DNA of 25,490 nucleotides from UHGV virus genome UHGV-1755679; one strand, written 5' to 3'. The DNA is from a virus. The notes under the pieces were generated by a model that had not been told where the DNA came from, made no database searches, and worked only from the letters and a program-made list of their open reading frames with translations. Shown one piece after another: positions 17,290-25,490 of this stretch. Position numbers and translations under genes: made by a program. Every line of letters starts with the position of its first letter. The stretch's first letter is position 1.

Positions 17290-18105
17290 TTAGCCAAGGC
17301 GCTTACGGCGCAGTTTCATTGACTTTTTGCGGGCAAGTTTTGCCGCGCCGGTCTGGGCTTTTCGACGCGCTTTTTTCAGCGCCGATTTTTGAGCCGCAGT
17401 CAGACGTTTTTTACGCAGGCGTTTACGGATGAGTTTGATCTCACCGTTACGAACAACCTTCTTAAATGCTTCAGTCAGCATTTCATCAGAAGTGCCAGCA
17501 ACAACAAACGCCGCTTCTAGTTCGTCGCGGTCGTCGCTATCTAAACCAGCGATAGAGGCACCAACATCAGCAGCTGCGTCGTCGTCTTCATCGTCAGCCA
17601 GTGCTTCGATCAGGTCATCATCTACACCGCATGCTGCGAGGAAGTCAGCAACATTTGCCCATGCTTCGTTATAGGCATCGTCCTGTTCTTCTGTAACTTC
17701 GGAGTCGTCGTCATCAGAGATACCAGCGATAGCCTGAACGAAACCATCAAGGGAGTCGAAAGTCAGATCACCGCTATCAGCCCAGGCGAAAACGGCGTCG
17801 GCCGCATCACTCAACGCATTTTGCATAGCACTTCGATTTGCAGCTTCCAGAATCATCTGGTGCGCCTGTTCGACGGTCCATTCTTTACCGTCTTTCCCTT
17901 CCAGGATTTGCTCAGGAGCCTGGGCAGATGGAACGTTATCGTTAGTCTGTGCCGCCGGTTCCGGATTATTATTAATAACCGGATCTGTTGGCGGTTCAGC
18001 GCTTGCTCGGGCAGACTCCATCAGCTGCACAGGATCAGAGTTCAAAGCGAAACGAGACAGTCCATTCCCCAAAAATGCCCCGGATTGAAAAAAGTTTTTG
18101 CTCAT
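17290..18105 (-). CDS. Virion-associated protein (271 aa) with an acidic central region and a strongly basic C-terminal tail, gene 21 position
   Basis: ATG at 18103-18105 with SD AAGGGA; composition: D/E-rich stretches (DDDDSEVTEEQDD, ADDEDDDAAAD) followed by a Lys/Arg-rich C-terminus (KRLRKKRLTAAQKSALKKARRKAQTGAAKLARKKSMKLRRKRLG). Confidence 0.4.
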   Translation of the reverse strand: MSKNFFQSGAFLGNGLSRFALNSDPVQLMESARASAEPPTDPVINNNPEPAAQTNDNVPSAQAPEQILEGKDGKEWTVEQAHQMILEAANRSAMQNALSDAADAVFAWADSGDLTFDSLDGFVQAIAGISDDDDSEVTEEQDDAYNEAWANVADFLAACGVDDDLIEALADDEDDDAAADVGASIAGLDSDDRDELEAAFVVAGTSDEMLTEAFKKVVRNGEIKLIRKRLRKKRLTAAQKSALKKARRKAQTGAAKLARKKSMKLRRKRLG

Positions 18106-18114
18106 TGTATTCCC

Positions 18115-19704
18115 TTACTTAATAAGCAGCGGTACGCCCTGGATACGACGGGCTACGCCAGTCGGGCAGCAGGCCCAGACTACTTCCCATTTATCGAATT
18201 CCGCCTGCGTAACTTTCAGCACATACGGTTCTGTACCGTCAGCATCAGGATCACGAGGAGCCACCAGAGCGCCGGAGGCGACAAAGCGATCTAAAAGTTT
18301 GGTCATCCCTTTAGTCAGGCCAGCCGCAGTAATACCGTCCGGGCTATGCTTCATCTGTCGGGCTAACTGGACAAAGAAACGGCTGATTGCATTCATCAGG
18401 GATGGGACGTGCTGGAAGTGCAGATAGTTATCCTGCGTGCAGCAAGTTAAAGCATCGTCGATGATCATCTGGCCAGAGGTGCCAACAGATACTTTATTGA
18501 GACGGCCCTTGACCATTGCTTCTTCGTCCGGGGTATCTTCCGGATACAGCGGTTGAATTGACGCACGAGCAATGACGGCACGTTCTTCACCAGCCGGTGA
18601 GTAATGCCAACCGCCGACATCAGAGTTTTTCTTGACGCCACGAGCTTTCGCCGCATACGCCACGCCAGACAGACCAAAGACCACACGGGATTGGGTCCAT
18701 TTGTCTTTGCAGGAGAACGGGTAGTGATAGACAGCACAGCTTACATAATCGGTACCAAGTAAACCGGTATCTTCAACAGCAGAGATCGCTTCCGTGTACG
18801 TCAATGTCGGTTTGACATCAAAGAAGCCATCAATCAGGCGATCTGCACAGATTTTACCTAATGCGGTGATAGCCGCATTGTCATAGCAGCCCAAGCCAAG
18901 AACAGCGGTGTACATGTACGGCGCATTATTCAGCACTTTAACCGCACGCAGGTACGCAGCGGTTGAGATTTTCGACTGATCGCCGTTGGTACCGCCAGTG
19001 AACGCCAACGATTTTTTGTTTGTTACTTTCGCTGTCGAAATCAGCTCTTCATTAACAACCGCGCGCAGATATTTAGAACGGGCTTCCAGAGCCGTAGGCA
19101 GATAACACAAGCGGCCCATGTCATCTTTCGCTTCTTCCGCCAAAGACACAGTGTGTGTCTCCAGGGTCGTTACCACGCCGAGCGAAGTCGTCTGGGTCAG
19201 TTTTAAGAGGAAGCGTTCATTACCCGCGCTGTCCGCTGTTGCCGTTTCGATGGTTAACTCACGGGTAGGTGAAATACACGGATCACCATCATCAACGTAG
19301 ATAGCAAAGGCTTCGCCACTATCAAGTTCAATTTCAGAACCGTATGGCAACGCACTGTAAGCCGGTTCGCCTGATTCATCGAACATAATAATCGGGAACT
19401 TCGCATCATCCGGAACAGCGCGAACAACATAACCAGACGTTTGCTGAATAGCTTCGTATACATGGCGAATTGGTTCGAACTGTGAGCCGGAAGACGGCTT
19501 CAGCGGTTCGCCGAGAACATCTTCGTAATTGGACTCAGTAACCGCAAGAACAGTAAACGGCTTGCCACGCGCAAATACGCCAATACCAGCCCATAAGCTG
19601 CTATTTAATGCAACACCGGTAGATAACGTCGCATCGGCATTGATCGGGCTAACCGCGACGCCGGATGCATTACCTAATGACTGTTGAATTGAATATTGAG
19701 ACAT
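18115..19704 (-). CDS. Contractile tail sheath protein (529 aa)
   Basis: ATG at 19702-19704 with SD AGGGAAAG; size about 57 kDa and position adjacent to the major head gene match P1 gene 22 (sheath) as I recall it. Confidence 0.65.
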   Translation of the reverse strand: MSQYSIQQSLGNASGVAVSPINADATLSTGVALNSSLWAGIGVFARGKPFTVLAVTESNYEDVLGEPLKPSSGSQFEPIRHVYEAIQQTSGYVVRAVPDDAKFPIIMFDESGEPAYSALPYGSEIELDSGEAFAIYVDDGDPCISPTRELTIETATADSAGNERFLLKLTQTTSLGVVTTLETHTVSLAEEAKDDMGRLCYLPTALEARSKYLRAVVNEELISTAKVTNKKSLAFTGGTNGDQSKISTAAYLRAVKVLNNAPYMYTAVLGLGCYDNAAITALGKICADRLIDGFFDVKPTLTYTEAISAVEDTGLLGTDYVSCAVYHYPFSCKDKWTQSRVVFGLSGVAYAAKARGVKKNSDVGGWHYSPAGEERAVIARASIQPLYPEDTPDEEAMVKGRLNKVSVGTSGQMIIDDALTCCTQDNYLHFQHVPSLMNAISRFFVQLARQMKHSPDGITAAGLTKGMTKLLDRFVASGALVAPRDPDADGTEPYVLKVTQAEFDKWEVVWACCPTGVARRIQGVPLLIK

Positions 19705-19764
19705 AACTTTCCCTGTTATGCGCCCCGCACGGGGGCGCTATGTTAAACGGAGAACTTCCCCTGA

Positions 19765-21471
19765 TTACTCAGAGTCACCGGCATCAATCGTGTCTCCGCT
19801 AATGAAGTTAAGCCCGCCTTTTTTGGCCATTGTCAGCGTTACACGAGTGAAGTAATCAGCGCCGTTGCGTGGGTGCATATCGTTGATAGCCGAACCCCAC
19901 AGCGTGGTACGGTTGACCAGCGCCGGAGTGGTCGGATGCTGGAACGGGATGGCCGGGACAGCATCACCAGTCACGAAGCCTGCTTTACCCGGATTTTCAT
20001 CACGGACGTAGCACAGCACATCCATCGAGCTGAACTGAATGTTCTCTGTCGTTAAGTTCTTACAAATACCAGCAGGTACTTCGTACACTTTCACGTTACC
20101 GAACAGGGTACCGATGTAGTGAACATACGGAGTCTGGATATAGTCTTCGGCTGGCTGGAAGAAATCCTTCGGCAACTGTTTGAAGAAAGATGCTGCATCA
20201 GCACCAGCAAACATCCCCATCGCACCAGAAGATTTAACGCGCTCAATAATGTCGCGATATACAGTCTGGAATTTGCCACGAATGATGGTTGCCCATACAT
20301 CAAAGGACTGGTTAACCGGCAGAGCGATGTCAAAGGTGTCGGTCGCAAGAGTACGCCAGATCATGATGCGAAGACGCAGCATATCCTGTTCATGAGACAG
20401 GTATTCCTTCAGGGTGCGGAACTGTAGGGAACCCAGGTCCAGACCAAATTCACGCTGTGCTTCATACGCCGCCTGTACCGTGTGCTCAGCCGCGATAACG
20501 AACTGGCTTGGGAACAGGGTGTATTTCTTCATTTCGTGGTTGATCAGCGGGATCAGCTCAGGAGCGGCTTCAATATTGATTTCCGTCTCAATTGCGATCT
20601 CAGTGCCTTTATCCGGCGCTTTGGAGAACGACAGGGCAATCTGACCAATGTTGTAGTTCAGAGAGCAGGTAACAGTGATTTGCTCACCAGCAGCATTAGT
20701 AAACGAGTGAAGTAGGCTGCCGGAACCGTTATCAACAACAGACTTAATACGGTTAACGTAGATATTAGTGCGACCTTTTCGGATTGGTACATTCTGGCCT
20801 TCGAAGTCTTCCATCTTGAAGGTTGCGGTTTTGCTGGTGCCATCGGAGCTTGCCACCAGCACATAGCGGCGGCGTAACTGGCTGTACACACCGACGGATT
20901 GCATGTCCAGAACATCACCAGCAGCATAAGAACCAAAAGAGGAACCTGCCACGTTAAAGACTTCATAGATGTCGGACTGGTCACGCGTAACCGGAATGAA
21001 GGTACACGCATCAGCGGTAGCTGCCCCCAACTGAACAGGCAGGATCATCGCGAGGAATAAAGGCAGACGCATAACACCGTCAGAAACGCTCATCATCTCT
21101 GCTGCGACGGATTCCAGCATCGCTTTATTAGTGGCATCCATGCTATTGCGGGTGGACTCAATCAGGCAGTTTTCCAGCGTCTGGTGGCAGGAGGCCAGAA
21201 TTTCCGGACGCGGCATAGATTTATGTGCTGCGGCGTAGTCAGCCAGTGCACTTGCCCACGCTGTAGCGATTTGAGCGGTGGCATTATCAGAGATACCCGC
21301 AAAAACCGGGTCTTTACGTGCAGCTTCAAGGATAGATGCGGCACGCGCGGCATCATCTTTAATGAATTGGTTATCAGTACCGAACTGCGCAGTGCTTGCC
21401 CAGCCAAGCACAGCTTTAGAGCGTTTTGCGATATCTGCAATACGATTCTGGTATTCGCGTAAGTTACTCAA
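19765..21471 (-). CDS. Major head (capsid) protein precursor, gene 23 position
   Basis: Frame is open from 21492 (TTG, no SD) per the ORF track; the TTG at 21469-21471 is preceded by SD AAGGAAGAG with 6-nt spacing and is the likelier start (about 568 aa). Lies immediately before parS as P1 gene 23 does. Start codon uncertain. Confidence 0.6.
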   Translation of the reverse strand: MSNLREYQNRIADIAKRSKAVLGWASTAQFGTDNQFIKDDAARAASILEAARKDPVFAGISDNATAQIATAWASALADYAAAHKSMPRPEILASCHQTLENCLIESTRNSMDATNKAMLESVAAEMMSVSDGVMRLPLFLAMILPVQLGAATADACTFIPVTRDQSDIYEVFNVAGSSFGSYAAGDVLDMQSVGVYSQLRRRYVLVASSDGTSKTATFKMEDFEGQNVPIRKGRTNIYVNRIKSVVDNGSGSLLHSFTNAAGEQITVTCSLNYNIGQIALSFSKAPDKGTEIAIETEINIEAAPELIPLINHEMKKYTLFPSQFVIAAEHTVQAAYEAQREFGLDLGSLQFRTLKEYLSHEQDMLRLRIMIWRTLATDTFDIALPVNQSFDVWATIIRGKFQTVYRDIIERVKSSGAMGMFAGADAASFFKQLPKDFFQPAEDYIQTPYVHYIGTLFGNVKVYEVPAGICKNLTTENIQFSSMDVLCYVRDENPGKAGFVTGDAVPAIPFQHPTTPALVNRTTLWGSAINDMHPRNGADYFTRVTLTMAKKGGLNFISGDTIDAGDSE

Positions 21472-21607
21472 TTTACTCTTCCTTAAACACAAGGCACTTG
21501 TGTGAATCCCTTTTCGGAAGAGATTTTATTGAAAGTCACTTGTTGACTTTCTCGTGACAAGCAATTTTTTTATTTTTTTCGGGAGTAGGGGAGGAAGGTA
21601 AAATCCA

Positions 21608-21693
21608 AGGTGAAATCGTGGCGATTTCACCTTGAAATTTTAGATGGATTTACTTTAAAAACAGTTGGTTAATAGTGAAATTTGAATGGCGAA
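21608..21693. promoter_or_regulatory. parS: parS partition (centromere) site
   Basis: The sequence GGTGAAATCGTGGCGATTTCACC ... TAGTGAAATTTGAATGGCGA contains the heptamer box A (ATTTCAC) and hexamer box B (TCGCCA) motifs in the arrangement of P1 parS, with an AT-rich IHF-type region between the arms; located immediately downstream of parB. Confidence 0.85.
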
Positions 21694-21696
21694 AGT

Positions 21697-22698
21697 TTAA
21701 GGCTTCGGCTTTTTATCGAGGCTCTTTCTAAGGATATGCCCAATCATCCTGTCGAGTTCTTCCTGTAGCTCTTTTGAAAGTCGATTAAACTCATAAGAAA
21801 ATGCACGGCCTTTCACGCGCTTCCTTGCAAAGCGATCCTTGTCCTCAAATTTCCATAATTCAGTAACTACGGACTTATCTTTAGAACCTTTATCCGTGAG
21901 TAGTGAGGCTTCCTTTGTTATCAAGCGCAGGATTTTATTTTTAACTTCATCTTCGGCCATTTCTTCAATGGATAAGATGTCGTTTATTTCCGGGGATATG
22001 TTTTGAATAAGCTGATCAAACTCTAAATTCTTGTTCCCCATTTCGTCGCCAACAGCACAAAGCGTTTTGTAGTCCGAAAAGGTTAATTCCGACTGAACAG
22101 GGAAAAGGGCGACTAATTCTTCCGGAGCACTCGCTGCCTGGAGAGCACGCGTGACCTTCGCCTGAGACAGCCCTTCTTTGGCTGCAATATCCTTCTGACT
22201 CATCCCATCATTTTTCATTCGCATCAAACGCAGACCTATTTCTCGAATGCTGTGCTGCAATGCTGTCTGAACGTCTTTCGCTAAATTTTGCGCTTCCTGA
22301 ACGCTGATCTCCTGGTCCGTGACTAAAACCCGCAACCCTACGTTCTCTAAGATGGCAGAAGCTCGACGCCGGGAACCATCCAAAATTTCAATTTTCCCTG
22401 TAGCCCGTCTAACACCTATTGCAGGGTAAAATTGCTGATGCTTAATAGTGCTTCGGATACTTTTTAATGATTTTGGCGTAAGAGATGCCTGGTCACGCCC
22501 GTTGTTATGCTGATCAACAAAGGTATCGCTTTCTACCTGGTTCGGAGGTATTACCTCTTCAATAAATGTGGCCTGGCGACCAGTTGATAACTTGAATACC
22601 TGCTCGACTCGATCGCCAGAGGCTGAAGAACTATCAAATCCGCTTAATATTGAAGGATTAAGGGTTCGCCCAATTGTTGGTCTGTTTTTCTTTGACAT
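21697..22698 (-). CDS. parB: Partition protein ParB (333 aa), centromere-binding
   Basis: ATG at 22696-22698; the translation (MSKKNRPTIGRTLNPSILSGFDSS ... LDKKPKP) matches P1 ParB as I recall it, with the same length. Confidence 0.95.
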   Translation of the reverse strand: MSKKNRPTIGRTLNPSILSGFDSSSASGDRVEQVFKLSTGRQATFIEEVIPPNQVESDTFVDQHNNGRDQASLTPKSLKSIRSTIKHQQFYPAIGVRRATGKIEILDGSRRRASAILENVGLRVLVTDQEISVQEAQNLAKDVQTALQHSIREIGLRLMRMKNDGMSQKDIAAKEGLSQAKVTRALQAASAPEELVALFPVQSELTFSDYKTLCAVGDEMGNKNLEFDQLIQNISPEINDILSIEEMAEDEVKNKILRLITKEASLLTDKGSKDKSVVTELWKFEDKDRFARKRVKGRAFSYEFNRLSKELQEELDRMIGHILRKSLDKKPKP

Positions 22699-22714
22699 GG
22701 GGGTTTCTTACTCC

Positions 22715-23911
22715 TCAGTTAGATCTGATAAATTCAATACGGTCAAAAACTGCTTTAGCAAAATCTTCCGCGGCAATTCGCGCGTTCTTCAATGCATCAG
22801 CACTACCAACATACGTTGCCGGGTTAGCTGAAATAACAGTGTCAAAAGACTCGCCGCAGCGTTCAAAACCGTCAAGGCGAGGGAGGACGACATCAAGCAT
22901 ATCCCCACCGAACACTTCTTTAGCCAGGCTATGGCAATACTTATGATCTGCCTTGTTACTCAACTTGGACATAAAACCAATGTTAGTCGCAAGCTGGCAC
23001 TCGCAGCCTTCATCCGAAATGAGTTTTACCAACTCAGGAAGGCGGGCAACGTATTTAAGCGATGAGTGGAAATCGACAGTTGCTGGCGGCAGAGGTGTAA
23101 ACAGTATATTGGCCGAGGCCAAAGCATTTTTCAGGAAGGCGTCAAGGTGAGGACCACTATCAACGAGGATAAAGTCATAATCGCTCTTCAGCTTATCAAT
23201 CACATTTTCTTTCAGGACAGCATGGATGTTCTGACCCGGTAGATGCTCATTGCACAGCTCTCTCCAATCGGATGCAATAAAGGCATCGTCAATCGACGCA
23301 GGCATAACGTCAACCCCAGGTACAACAGAAGGAACAATAAACTCCTCTAACAGCTCTTCACGGCTTACATTCTGCAACATAGCCTGTGCAGATGTTGCGT
23401 TTACGATACCAATAGAGTGTTTATGGCTTAAAAACATCGTTGCTGAAGATTGCGGATCAAGGTCAATAACCAGAATCCTTAAATCTTCCATCAGAAGATG
23501 AGGGTGGGCACGCATTGCATGCGCCAGAGAAACCGTCGATACAGTTTTTGACACACCGCCTTTAAGATTGGAGATGAAAATCACATACGCTTCGCTGTAG
23601 CGATCCCGGTATTTTGGCACTCCGCGATGTTCATATATGTCAATGATGTTCTGAATTGACATCGCATATTTCATTGAAGAGCCAGCAGGGCGTTTATCGA
23701 AAACATAACCCTTTTCTTCCATTTCACTTACGGCATAGTCAACGTTCGCTCGAGTCAGTAGAGGCAATTTTGCCAGTGCCGCTTTCGCATAGACCTGGTA
23801 AAACTCGTTCGCGTGTAGCTCATCCTTTTGCAACTGTACTTGTTCAGTCAGAACATTGAGCATTCTGTTTGCTCTTTGAGCAACCTTGTGAAGCTGGCTG
23901 GAATCACTCAT
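22715..23911 (-). CDS. parA: Partition ATPase ParA (398 aa), Walker-type deviant ATPase
   Basis: ATG at 23909-23911; the translation (MSDSSQLHKVAQRANRMLNVL ... with Walker A KGGVSKT) matches P1 ParA as I recall it. Confidence 0.95.
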   Translation of the reverse strand: MSDSSQLHKVAQRANRMLNVLTEQVQLQKDELHANEFYQVYAKAALAKLPLLTRANVDYAVSEMEEKGYVFDKRPAGSSMKYAMSIQNIIDIYEHRGVPKYRDRYSEAYVIFISNLKGGVSKTVSTVSLAHAMRAHPHLLMEDLRILVIDLDPQSSATMFLSHKHSIGIVNATSAQAMLQNVSREELLEEFIVPSVVPGVDVMPASIDDAFIASDWRELCNEHLPGQNIHAVLKENVIDKLKSDYDFILVDSGPHLDAFLKNALASANILFTPLPPATVDFHSSLKYVARLPELVKLISDEGCECQLATNIGFMSKLSNKADHKYCHSLAKEVFGGDMLDVVLPRLDGFERCGESFDTVISANPATYVGSADALKNARIAAEDFAKAVFDRIEFIRSN

Positions 23912-24040
23912 CGAAAGTCATCCTTTATGCTGTATTTTTGAATTTAATTAAAAATGCTGCATAAAATAATAATGTATGCGTAGATGCTTGTACATAGCAT
24001 TCTCTGCATGTTTGGTTCATTTTGCACGATTGAGAGTTAC
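23912..24040 (-). promoter_or_regulatory. par operon promoter/operator region (AT-rich, with imperfect inverted repeats)
   Basis: AT-rich 130-bp stretch directly upstream of parA containing repeated TGCTGCAT / ATGCAGCA-type elements; assignment by position. Confidence 0.35.
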
Positions 24041-24051
24041 AAGAAAGGCAC

Positions 24052-24072
24052 AAAAAAGCCCCGTTCAGGGGC
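24052..24072 (-). terminator. Intrinsic terminator of the T5orf172-domain gene
   Basis: Stem GCCCC / GGGGC (5-nt loop) followed on the minus strand by TTTTTT, starting 8 nt after the ORF stop codon. Confidence 0.6.
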
Positions 24073-24079
24073 ATCAGTG

Positions 24080-24889
24080 TTATTTGCTAAGAGCAGCGAA
24101 TAATCGTTCGAAATCGATAGTATCTATAGCACGCGTAAGCGCCGGAAGTTCAGCCTCAAAGTACCCGTGTCGATCGTAAAAGAAGGGACCGAAGAGCGAG
24201 GCATGTTGGATTCTACTTCGCCCCAGCCCGGACACACAGTTAAGCCCATTACCGGCTAAAAGGCTAAAAAACTTCTCTGGATTATCGTGGTAAAGCTGGG
24301 AATCAATGGTGGCGGTTAACTCTTCCATAGGGAAGCACACCCGCCCTGTATCCCAGGGATATTTAGTCCGAAGCATAAACATTGCTTTCAGCAATTCACA
24401 TTGAGCGCGGATCGCGTCCGGTTCATAGCCAGATATGGAGACATAAGCCACGTCCCTCATTCCTGCGTCATCTTTGAAAGTCACGATAGAAGTAACATCC
24501 AGCTCTTTTTCGAAAGAGCAAGCAGCATCTACTGGACGCTGAAGTAAATCATTCGACTTAATGCGCTCGAGAATCCCTCCCCACATATCATTTAGATATT
24601 CGATATGAGCCAAAACCTTATCAAGACACTCTCGTGTAAACCATTCAGTATGCCCGCCACCGACGCTTTTCTCCCACGGCGCATTCCAGGGGAAAAAGGT
24701 TGCGTGTAAAGCCCGCTCAAGATTAACCATTGCCAAACGTGTACCACGATAGACCCGTGAAAGCGCAAAATCGGGACTCACTTGTAGCCCTTTAAACCGT
24801 GCCAATGGACCACATGAAATGCCGATTTTAAAAGTATCTCCGTTCTCTGGCACCAGAACGTAGAGGTAGTGTTGTTTCTCTTCTTGCAT
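24080..24889 (-). CDS. Protein (269 aa) with N-terminal T5orf172/MUG113 (GIY-YIG-like) domain; function unknown
   Basis: ATG at 24887-24889; the N-terminal about 90 aa show the domain signature YLYVLVPENGDTFKIGIS ... LERALHATF ... GGGHTEWF; the C-terminal about 150 aa carry no motif I recognise. Own terminator downstream; sits between the iteron array and the par promoter. Confidence 0.6.
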   Translation of the reverse strand: MQEEKQHYLYVLVPENGDTFKIGISCGPLARFKGLQVSPDFALSRVYRGTRLAMVNLERALHATFFPWNAPWEKSVGGGHTEWFTRECLDKVLAHIEYLNDMWGGILERIKSNDLLQRPVDAACSFEKELDVTSIVTFKDDAGMRDVAYVSISGYEPDAIRAQCELLKAMFMLRTKYPWDTGRVCFPMEELTATIDSQLYHDNPEKFFSLLAGNGLNCVSGLGRSRIQHASLFGPFFYDRHGYFEAELPALTRAIDTIDFERLFAALSK

Positions 24890-24920
24890 ATCAATACCAC
24901 TGCTTGATGAGAACCGCGCA

Positions 24921-25180
24921 AATGTTGACTATGCGCGAAGGTTAATGTGAATAGTTGACTATGCGCGATGTGACTACAGTCAAAAGTTGACTGTAGTCGA
25001 TTTAACTCCACCAAAGATCGACTATGTAAGATATTGTCGGGAGAAACGTTGACTATACGCGATGAAATGACCCTAAAAGCCATCTCAATAGCGACTTGCA
25101 GAATATTGACGCCAGCAAAAATCCACCAGCGTCAACGAATGTCGCCTATAGTCAACTTCTCGCTATCGCATATAGTCAAT
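24921..25180. repeat. Iteron array: at least 5 direct 15-bp repeats (consensus GTTGACTATGCGCGA) phased at about 31 bp, plus 2-3 inverted copies
   Basis: Direct copies at 24923-24937, 24954-24968, 24986-25000, 25018-25032 (diverged) and 25048-25062; inverted copies at about 24971-24984, 25143-25157 and 25166-25180. Located just downstream of the Rep-like ORF, like incA/incC control iterons. Confidence 0.75.
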
Positions 25181-25181
25181 A

Positions 25182-25417
25182 TTATGGATTGCGCTTATGG
25201 ATCTGGAAGCCGATTTTTCTGCCGTTTTTTATCTCTGAAAATTTAAGATATTCAATAGCTTCCAAATCTTTCATGGCTTTTCTGATAACGCTATTTTGCA
25301 CGCTAACGGATGATTTGAGATTAAGCCTTGCTCTAAGGCGCTCAATGCTGACAGGTGCCGGGTTGGCGGGTAGAGCCTCAAAGAATGTATACAGCACCTT
25401 GGCCGTCTCTTTGCGCC
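25182..25417 (-). CDS. Rep_3-family (iteron-binding) replication initiator, C-terminal fragment; 5' end truncated by the contig/adapter boundary
   Basis: The reading frame is open from the adapter junction to the stop at 25182; the C-terminal motif ...SIERLRARLNL ... IRKAMKDLEAIEYLKFSEIKNGRKIGFQIH resembles the conserved C-terminal winged-helix region of Rep_3 initiators (kkGrkI..F.I pattern); followed by the iteron array. Confidence 0.5.
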
Positions 25418-25490
25418 CTGTCTCTTATACACATCTCCGAGCCCACGAGACGGACTCCTATCTCGTATGCCGTCTTCTGCTTGAAAAAAA
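25418..25490. other. Illumina Nextera adapter (reverse complement of the same P7/index/mosaic-end adapter) followed by a poly-A run; not biological sequence
   Basis: CTGTCTCTTATACACATCTCCGAGCCCACGAGAC + GGACTCCT + ATCTCGTATGCCGTCTTCTGCTTG, then AAAAAAA. Confidence 0.95.

Follow-up and report, generated by a model that had tools for sequence, protein, structure and literature searches.

P1-like phage-plasmids carry either an IncY or a p0111 replicon (PMC9603915). In a survey of Salmonella elements, 132 were of the p0111 type and 94 of the IncY type, and 17 changes of the replicon type were inferred (PMC11165635). The type reference is given there as 'p0111 repB (AP010962.1)' of E. coli O111:H- 11128. 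In the phage-plasmid JL22, repA (p0111) and an unknown gene, gp57, stand in for repA (IncY) (PMC9603915), and the RepA protein of SJ46 was reported to be 42% identical to P1 RepA (PMC5241659). For P1 itself, we read 14 iterons from NC_005856: five iterons at intervals of 21-22 bp form the origin, and nine make up the incA locus, three of them forward and six inverted, spaced by 30-31 bp apart from two gaps of 40-41 bp. The P1 iteron is the 19-bp sequence GATGTGTGCTGGAGGGAAA.

The DNA studied here is a viral contig of 25,490 nucleotides, which we call the window. Close to its right end, it carries an array of short repeats beside an open reading frame that is cut by the end of the contig. Array and ORF are the putative copy-control repeats and the initiator-gene tail of the catalogued p0111 replicon, which is already known and very common. 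The region is very probably the rep-distal part of the maintenance replicon of a p0111-type P1-like phage-plasmid, with an array that most likely corresponds to incA.

The truncated rep gene and the adjacent repeats

The features between the contig end and the cassette border are given here in the order in which the rep strand is read:

25419..25490, plus strand: Nextera transposase/P7 adapter with index GGACTCCT and poly-A tail, non-biological sequence
25182..25418, minus strand: 3' end of rep, the last 78 codons and the stop codon (25182-25184) of a 294-aa p0111-type Rep_3 initiator, with the WH2 DNA-binding domain by homology
25166..25180, minus strand: iteron ATTGACTATATGCGA in rep orientation, begins 1 nt past the rep stop codon
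25142..25156, minus strand: iteron GTTGACTATAGGCGA in rep orientation, 24 bp from the iteron at 25166..25180
25105..25136, no strand: inverted half-iteron pair ATTGACGC ... GCGTCAAC
25122-25136, minus strand: degenerate third forward iteron GTTGACGCTGGTGGA within the half-iteron pair, conserved in the D6-type relative
25048..25062, plus strand: iteron GTTGACTATACGCGA, inverted relative to rep
25017..25031, plus strand: decayed iteron slot ATCGACTATGTAAGA with 5 mismatches, in phase (31 bp) and aligned with a good iteron in the D6-type relative
24986..25000, plus strand: iteron variant GTTGACTGTAGTCGA, right arm of the palindrome at 24972-24998
24972-24998: perfect 12-bp palindrome GACTACAGTCAA-aag-TTGACTGTAGTC, the third plus-strand iteron being one arm
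24954..24968, plus strand: iteron GTTGACTATGCGCGA, identical to its neighbour at 24924-24938
24924..24938, plus strand: outermost iteron GTTGACTATGCGCGA; the T5orf172 start codon is 35 bp away
24080..24889, minus strand: 269-aa ORF of the T5orf172/GIY-YIG family (PF10544, 26.9 bits, cut-off 20; phrog_2876)
24052..24072, minus strand: terminator-like hairpin GCCCC-tgaac-GGGGC followed by TTTTTT, just past the T5orf172 stop codon, read from the sequence

The sequence from 25419 onwards (CTGTCTCTTATACACATCTCCGAGCCCACGAGAC-GGACTCCT-ATCTCGTATGCCGTCTTCTGCTTG and poly-A) is what we take to be an Illumina Nextera/P7 adapter, and the rep ORF runs into it. The contig therefore carries only 237 of the 885 nt of rep (27%) and none of the origin. 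The earlier note had explained the lack of the rep N-terminus and of the origin iterons by the adapter at the contig end, and this explanation holds, as complete relatives possess both.

The 78 residues of the Rep fragment, which end in ...EIKNGRKIGFQIHKRNP, recur unchanged at the C-terminus of the full-length Rep proteins encoded by NZ_CP019188 and pO111_2. The fragment matches the Pfam family Rep3_C (WH2, PF21205) with 30.0 bits, and the full-length protein of a relative does so with 27.3 bits (gathering cut-off 21.1). With Rep3_N (WH1, PF01051), a domain that lies outside the window, the full-length protein reaches 22.0 bits against a cut-off of 22.4 and a value of 25.7 for P1 RepA; it aligns with P1 RepA across the WH1 region at 42% identity. 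The complete 294-aa Rep of NZ_CP019188 is 42% identical to P1 RepA over 272 aa (E = 9e-71), which reproduces the value published for SJ46 (PMC5241659). None of Rep, its 78-aa fragment and the T5orf172 ORF had a match in NCBIfam, and PDB searches with the full Rep sequence and a profile of six sequences returned chance-level matches, with RepE, pi and RepA not among them. The AF2 model of the 78-aa fragment, computed without an alignment, is of low confidence (pLDDT 59); its order of three helices followed by two beta strands is compatible with a winged helix. In the annotations of the relatives, the same protein appears as 'RepB family', 'RepFIB replication protein A', 'replication helicase' or 'hypothetical protein'. 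The label 'helicase' is misleading for the p0111 Rep.

As claimed earlier, the repeats lie directly downstream of an ORF of the Rep_3 type: the array begins 1 nt after the rep stop codon, and directly repeated sites beside the rep gene are a mark of Rep_3 initiators. Direct reading and a motif scan delimit the phased array of the 15-bp repeat GTTGACTATRCGCGA to 24924-25180, in a non-coding stretch of 260 bp between the rep stop codon and the 269-aa ORF. If up to three mismatches are allowed, GTTGACTATRCGCGA has seven matches in the window as compared to 1.11 +/- 1.04 expected, none of 100 shuffles gave seven matches, and six of the seven are located within the array. On the plus strand, the iterons start at 24924, 24954, 24986 and 25048; together with the decayed slot at 25017, they follow each other in steps of 30, 32, 31 and 31 bp. 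The minus strand, i. e. the rep strand, bears the good iterons at 25142-25156 and 25166-25180 and the degenerate copy at 25122-25136. The description of at least five direct and two or three inverted repeats at a phasing of 30-32 bp was thus accurate, provided that the slot at 25017 is counted.

The number of iterons in the control array varies in nature, as indicated by CP099125 and the records H167 and H169. In CP099125, exactly one repeat unit of 30 bp is missing with respect to window positions 24939-24969 (5050-5080 in the excerpt of the complete relative L001), and the matches of the other two records are likewise 30 bp shorter. The gap in CP099125 spans the identical copies at 24924-24938 and 24954-24968, and judged by the alignment, either of them may be the one that was lost. 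Such a loss is the outcome expected of recombination between tandem iterons. One more iteron-like sequence, GTTGACTATAAGCGA, is found inside the rep coding region, where it encodes the peptide YVDYKRI (L001 5560-5574, about 25449-25463 if the window continued); it is kept in the D6-type relative.

The p0111 replicon and its relation to P1, D6 and RepFIB

The assignment to p0111 is based on the comparison with complete plasmids. The 529 bp from 24890 to 25418 are 100% identical to 11 complete plasmids among the matches listed, and 396 of the 398 matching PLSDB records reach at least 95% identity. These records come from Escherichia, Salmonella, Shigella and Klebsiella, and most are non-mobilizable plasmids of about 90-100 kb. 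Twelve phage records match at 98.9-99.2%, with SJ46, RCS47, JL22 and phi456 at 99.1-99.2%. Among 5426 complete E. coli genomes, 415 have a match and 408 (about 8%) one of at least 95% identity; 414 of the 422 places of these matches are on plasmids. The larger segment 24015-25418 is 99.1% identical over 1404 nt to pO111_2 (NC_013370) of E. coli O111:H- 11128, well within the level of about 95% or more that is used for typing p0111; the type reference AP010962 is presumably the GenBank twin of this record. NC_013366 was rejected as a candidate for pO111_2, since this record is pO111_3, an unrelated IncF virulence plasmid. MOB-suite types these plasmids as 'IncHI1B', whereas papers based on PlasmidFinder call them p0111, and the naming is thus inconsistent.

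In pO111_2, SJ46, RCS47, JL22 and phi456, the genes follow the same order, i. e. rep, iteron array, T5orf172 gene, parA and parB. Nothing substantive distinguishes the window from these systems, except that its copy is cut at the contig end. Typing tools usually ask for at least 60% of rep, and with 237 of 885 nt, the contig falls short of this coverage owing to truncation by the adapter and not to divergence; automated replicon typing of the contig may therefore fail. The replicon identifies the contig as a fragment of a p0111-type P1-like phage-plasmid. As p0111 is a standard typing target found in hundreds of sequenced phage-plasmids, there is little discovery value in the replicon as such. 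In the open-access literature that was searched, iterons are not mentioned for p0111, and an explicit map of the origin and control arrays is a modest addition that may serve as a base for work on incompatibility and copy number in these carriers of antibiotic-resistance genes.

It might be argued that the region is an assembly artefact or a chimera, given that adapter sequence is present at both ends of the contig. However, independently finished plasmids match the sequence collinearly and at 100% identity as far as 25418, and the match ends exactly there, immediately before the adapter. We regard an artefact as extremely unlikely.

Left of the cassette, the window is of the P1 type:

24013..24014: left edge of the swapped cassette; identity to P1 stops at 24013, which corresponds to P1 61315, just upstream of Ppar
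22715..23911, minus strand: parA of the P1 type, from the ORF and the comparison with P1
21697..22698, minus strand: parB of the P1 type, from the ORF and the comparison with P1

On the minus strand, the 3' end of rep is followed by the array, the 269-aa ORF, parA, parB and the P1 major head gene 23. The parAB genes are 99.6% identical to those of P1, and the stretch from 17697 to 24013, which covers P1 parS, is 99.1% identical. The proposal of a P1-like architecture with rep, downstream iterons and parAB-parS has thus been confirmed. In the complete relatives, the identity to P1 resumes at P1 62816, between the incC iterons and the part of oriR that contains the GATC sites and the DnaA box. 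A cassette of about 2.26 kb has taken the place of 1.5 kb of P1; besides rep, it comprises the iterons of the origin and of the downstream array, the T5orf172 gene and the terminator-like hairpin. The DnaA/GATC part of the origin, which is shared with P1 oriR at 96% identity, is located outside the exchanged cassette.

The P1 and RCS47 parAB genes are each 99.5-99.6% identical to those of the window (21697-23911, nucleotide level), and the match to P7 stops at 21641, before parB. PMC5241659, in contrast, relays a statement in which ParA and ParB of RCS47 are P7-like and distant from P1.

The near-identity of parAB and the flanking structural genes (99-99.6%) might suggest that the region is simply the canonical repA/incA locus of P1 IncY, and the earlier note had named identity to P1 repA/incA as the finding that would make the replicon canonical. 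Yet the homology to P1 stops at 24013, the Rep protein is only 42% identical to RepA rather than nearly identical, and P1 records are absent from the megablast matches of 24890-25418. Moreover, the 19-bp iteron GATGTGTGCTGGAGGGAAA has no match in the window at up to three mismatches, in agreement with the earlier note, according to which the repeat differs from the RepA iteron of P1. What the region does have in common with IncY is the architecture: the window shows the tail of rep, the array and parAB, and relatives that are identical to it wherever the two overlap possess the full layout. That the region is the canonical P1 replicon can for all practical purposes be dismissed. Because both the iterons and Rep differ from those of P1, the P1 backbone here bears an alternative replicon. 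The idea of an alternative replicon type was correct in that this replicon is distinct from that of P1, but it is not novel, as it has already been catalogued as p0111.

The complete relative L001, which equals the window over the shared 5.5 kb except for one indel and two mismatches, reveals the entire replicon. On the rep strand, a DnaA box (TTATCCACA) and five GATC sites are followed by five iterons, rep and the downstream array. The five origin iterons (GTTGACTRYRCGCGA / GTTGACTRYRCGCGAT) are all in rep orientation at intervals of 21-22 bp (21, 21, 21 and 22); P1 likewise has five origin iterons at 21-22 bp. The downstream array consists of two good forward iterons and a degenerate one, and then of five inverted slots at 30-32 bp. 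P1 and p0111 are alike in the succession of origin iterons, rep, a mixed-orientation array at about 31 bp, and parAB-parS. They differ in the iteron itself, which has 15-16 bp (GTTGACTATRCGCGA(T)) in p0111 as compared to the 19 bp of GATGTGTGCTGGAGGGAAA in P1, and in the size of the array, with about six good and two or three decayed copies in p0111 and nine copies in P1 incA. In addition, p0111 has the T5orf172 gene and the terminator-like hairpin between the array and Ppar, both of which P1 lacks. Judged by their sequences, the two replicons appear as architectural homologues with different specificity.

Among the records that were examined, the nearest distinct relative is the D6-type replicon of phage D6 and of D6-like phage-plasmids such as pNCYU-26-73-5, CP042620 (Rep 85% identical at the amino acid level, rep region 75-77% at the nucleotide level). 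CP042620 is a D6-like phage-plasmid that is 93.6% identical to phage D6, and its locus corresponds to positions 84462-93631, with rep at 4063-4947 of this excerpt (L008). The D6-type replicon shares its iteron core and origin layout with p0111; its WH2 domain is almost identical, and its downstream array also consists of forward and then inverted iterons, with four inverted slots as compared to five in p0111 and with diverged spacers. In the alignment of the downstream regions of p0111 and the D6 type, 72% of the iteron columns but only 44% of the spacer columns are identical (Fisher p = 5e-6). The iteron cores have thus been selectively conserved between the two. The context differs: the D6-type replicon is accompanied by D6 tail and morphogenesis genes, and no parAB is found alongside. 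The high identity of Rep and the shared iteron core in such a different gene context suggest a transfer of the replicon module between the D6 and P1 subgroups.

The RepFIB/IncFIB initiators of pO157 and Klebsiella IncFIB(K) plasmids belong to the same Rep_3 subfamily. They are 45-49% identical to the p0111 Rep, i. e. slightly closer than P1 RepA with its 42%, and this agrees with the presence of a common core, TGACTRYAG, in the iterons of RepFIB and p0111, a core that is absent from the P1 iteron. In RepFIB, iterons flank rep on both sides (TTACTGACTACAGCTTATAT in pO157, L011 1730-2001). The differences concern the iteron outside the core, the longer C-terminus of Rep and the carriers, which are conjugative F-type plasmids and not phage-plasmids.

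Possible functions of the downstream array

Since the complete relatives share the P1-like layout, we infer that the array most likely acts like P1 incA, i. e. it would titrate Rep and pair with the origin. By this analogy, which draws on the annotation of NC_005856 and on the general picture of iteron plasmids, the five origin iterons would be bound by Rep monomers, and these, together with DnaA, would open the adjacent GATC-rich region. The array behind rep would sequester Rep monomers in the way of incA, and the pairing of its iterons with those of the origin ('handcuffing') would hold the prophage at about one copy. A search of the accessible literature yielded no binding, copy-number or incompatibility experiment on the p0111 replicon or its array. 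Because the iterons and Rep differ from those of P1, the incompatibility specificity of p0111 should be separate from that of IncY, and elements of the two types should be compatible; IncY and p0111 have been called 'theoretically compatible' (PMC11165635).

If the window is considered in isolation, the array could be taken for the replication origin itself, located downstream of rep, instead of a copy-control locus: a cluster of initiator-type iterons adjoins rep, and no other array is visible. In the relatives, however, a separate, uniformly oriented set of five iterons at 21-22 bp precedes rep, and it is this set that is directly joined to the DnaA box and the five GATC sites, in the part that is 96% identical to P1 oriR. 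The downstream array, in contrast, has the mixed orientation and the spacing of about 31 bp that characterize P1 incA, and it is not flanked by a DnaA box or a GATC cluster. It is therefore very unlikely that the array serves as the origin.

The incA-like role has also to be weighed against the idea that the repeats are mainly a Rep-controlled operator or promoter, either for the T5orf172 gene or for a transcript that runs antisense into rep, with copy control being secondary. The outermost iteron is only 35 bp away from the T5orf172 start codon, every iteron contains TTGACT, a near-consensus -35 hexamer, and the plasmids with the T5orf172 segment are nearly the same as those with rep (401 and 398 records, respectively). 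But the lone promoter match in the array, TAGTCA-16-TATAGT, is on the plus strand between the two rep-proximal iterons and points towards the 3' end of rep, and the array contains no promoter match on the minus strand, from which T5orf172 is read; the total of two matches compares to 3.4 expected in shuffles. Moreover, the TTGACT of the five proximal copies points away from the T5orf172 gene. Finally, the array persists where the gene does not: the D6-type replicon keeps it with neither an annotated gene nor an ORF of at least 90 aa beside it, and in pO111_2 and CP099125 T5orf172 is split while the array is intact or nearly so. A primary role as an operator thus seems quite unlikely, and the incA-like function is the preferred one.

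In the complete replicon, a scan for sigma-70 promoters and terminators gave no more matches than shuffles, and no convincing rep promoter was detected in the origin iterons. By eye, each TTGACT meets the GACTRT of the next iteron 17 nt further on (8 of 12 consensus positions), but this is speculation only. It is also tempting to speculate that the palindromic half-iteron pairs at 24972-24998 and 25105-25136 might be operators for Rep dimers that add a further layer of control.

The T5orf172 gene and the contig ends

The T5orf172 ORF, which is situated between the array and parA, belongs to the p0111 cassette; P1 has nothing equivalent. The relatives annotate it as 'GIY-YIG nuclease family protein', and in JL22 it is the gene gp57 (PMC9603915). 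In pO111_2 and CP099125, the gene is split into two ORFs. The product could be a homing-type nuclease that drives the replacement of IncY by p0111 upon an encounter of two P1-like elements. The co-occurrence of the gene with rep in 401 and 398 records, the sharp edges of the cassette at P1 61315 and 62816, the split or truncated copies in some carriers and the 17 changes of the replicon type (PMC11165635) are all compatible with such an activity, which, if real, would explain the repeated replicon-type switches across the phage-plasmid tree. We nevertheless consider it improbable that either this proposal or the one of dimer operators in the palindromic half-iterons applies.

At the left end of the contig, the reverse complement of the adapter occupies positions 1-66. 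The presence of the same adapter in inverted orientation at both ends implies an assembly from untrimmed reads, and both ends are artefactual break points. The adjacent segment 67-1014 lacks a megablast match in most P1-like phage records (17 of the 20 listed), the matches of which start at 1015 (in one case at 648). It is internally repetitive, with units of about 60 nt that recur roughly 300 nt apart, and probably represents a variable tail-fibre end.
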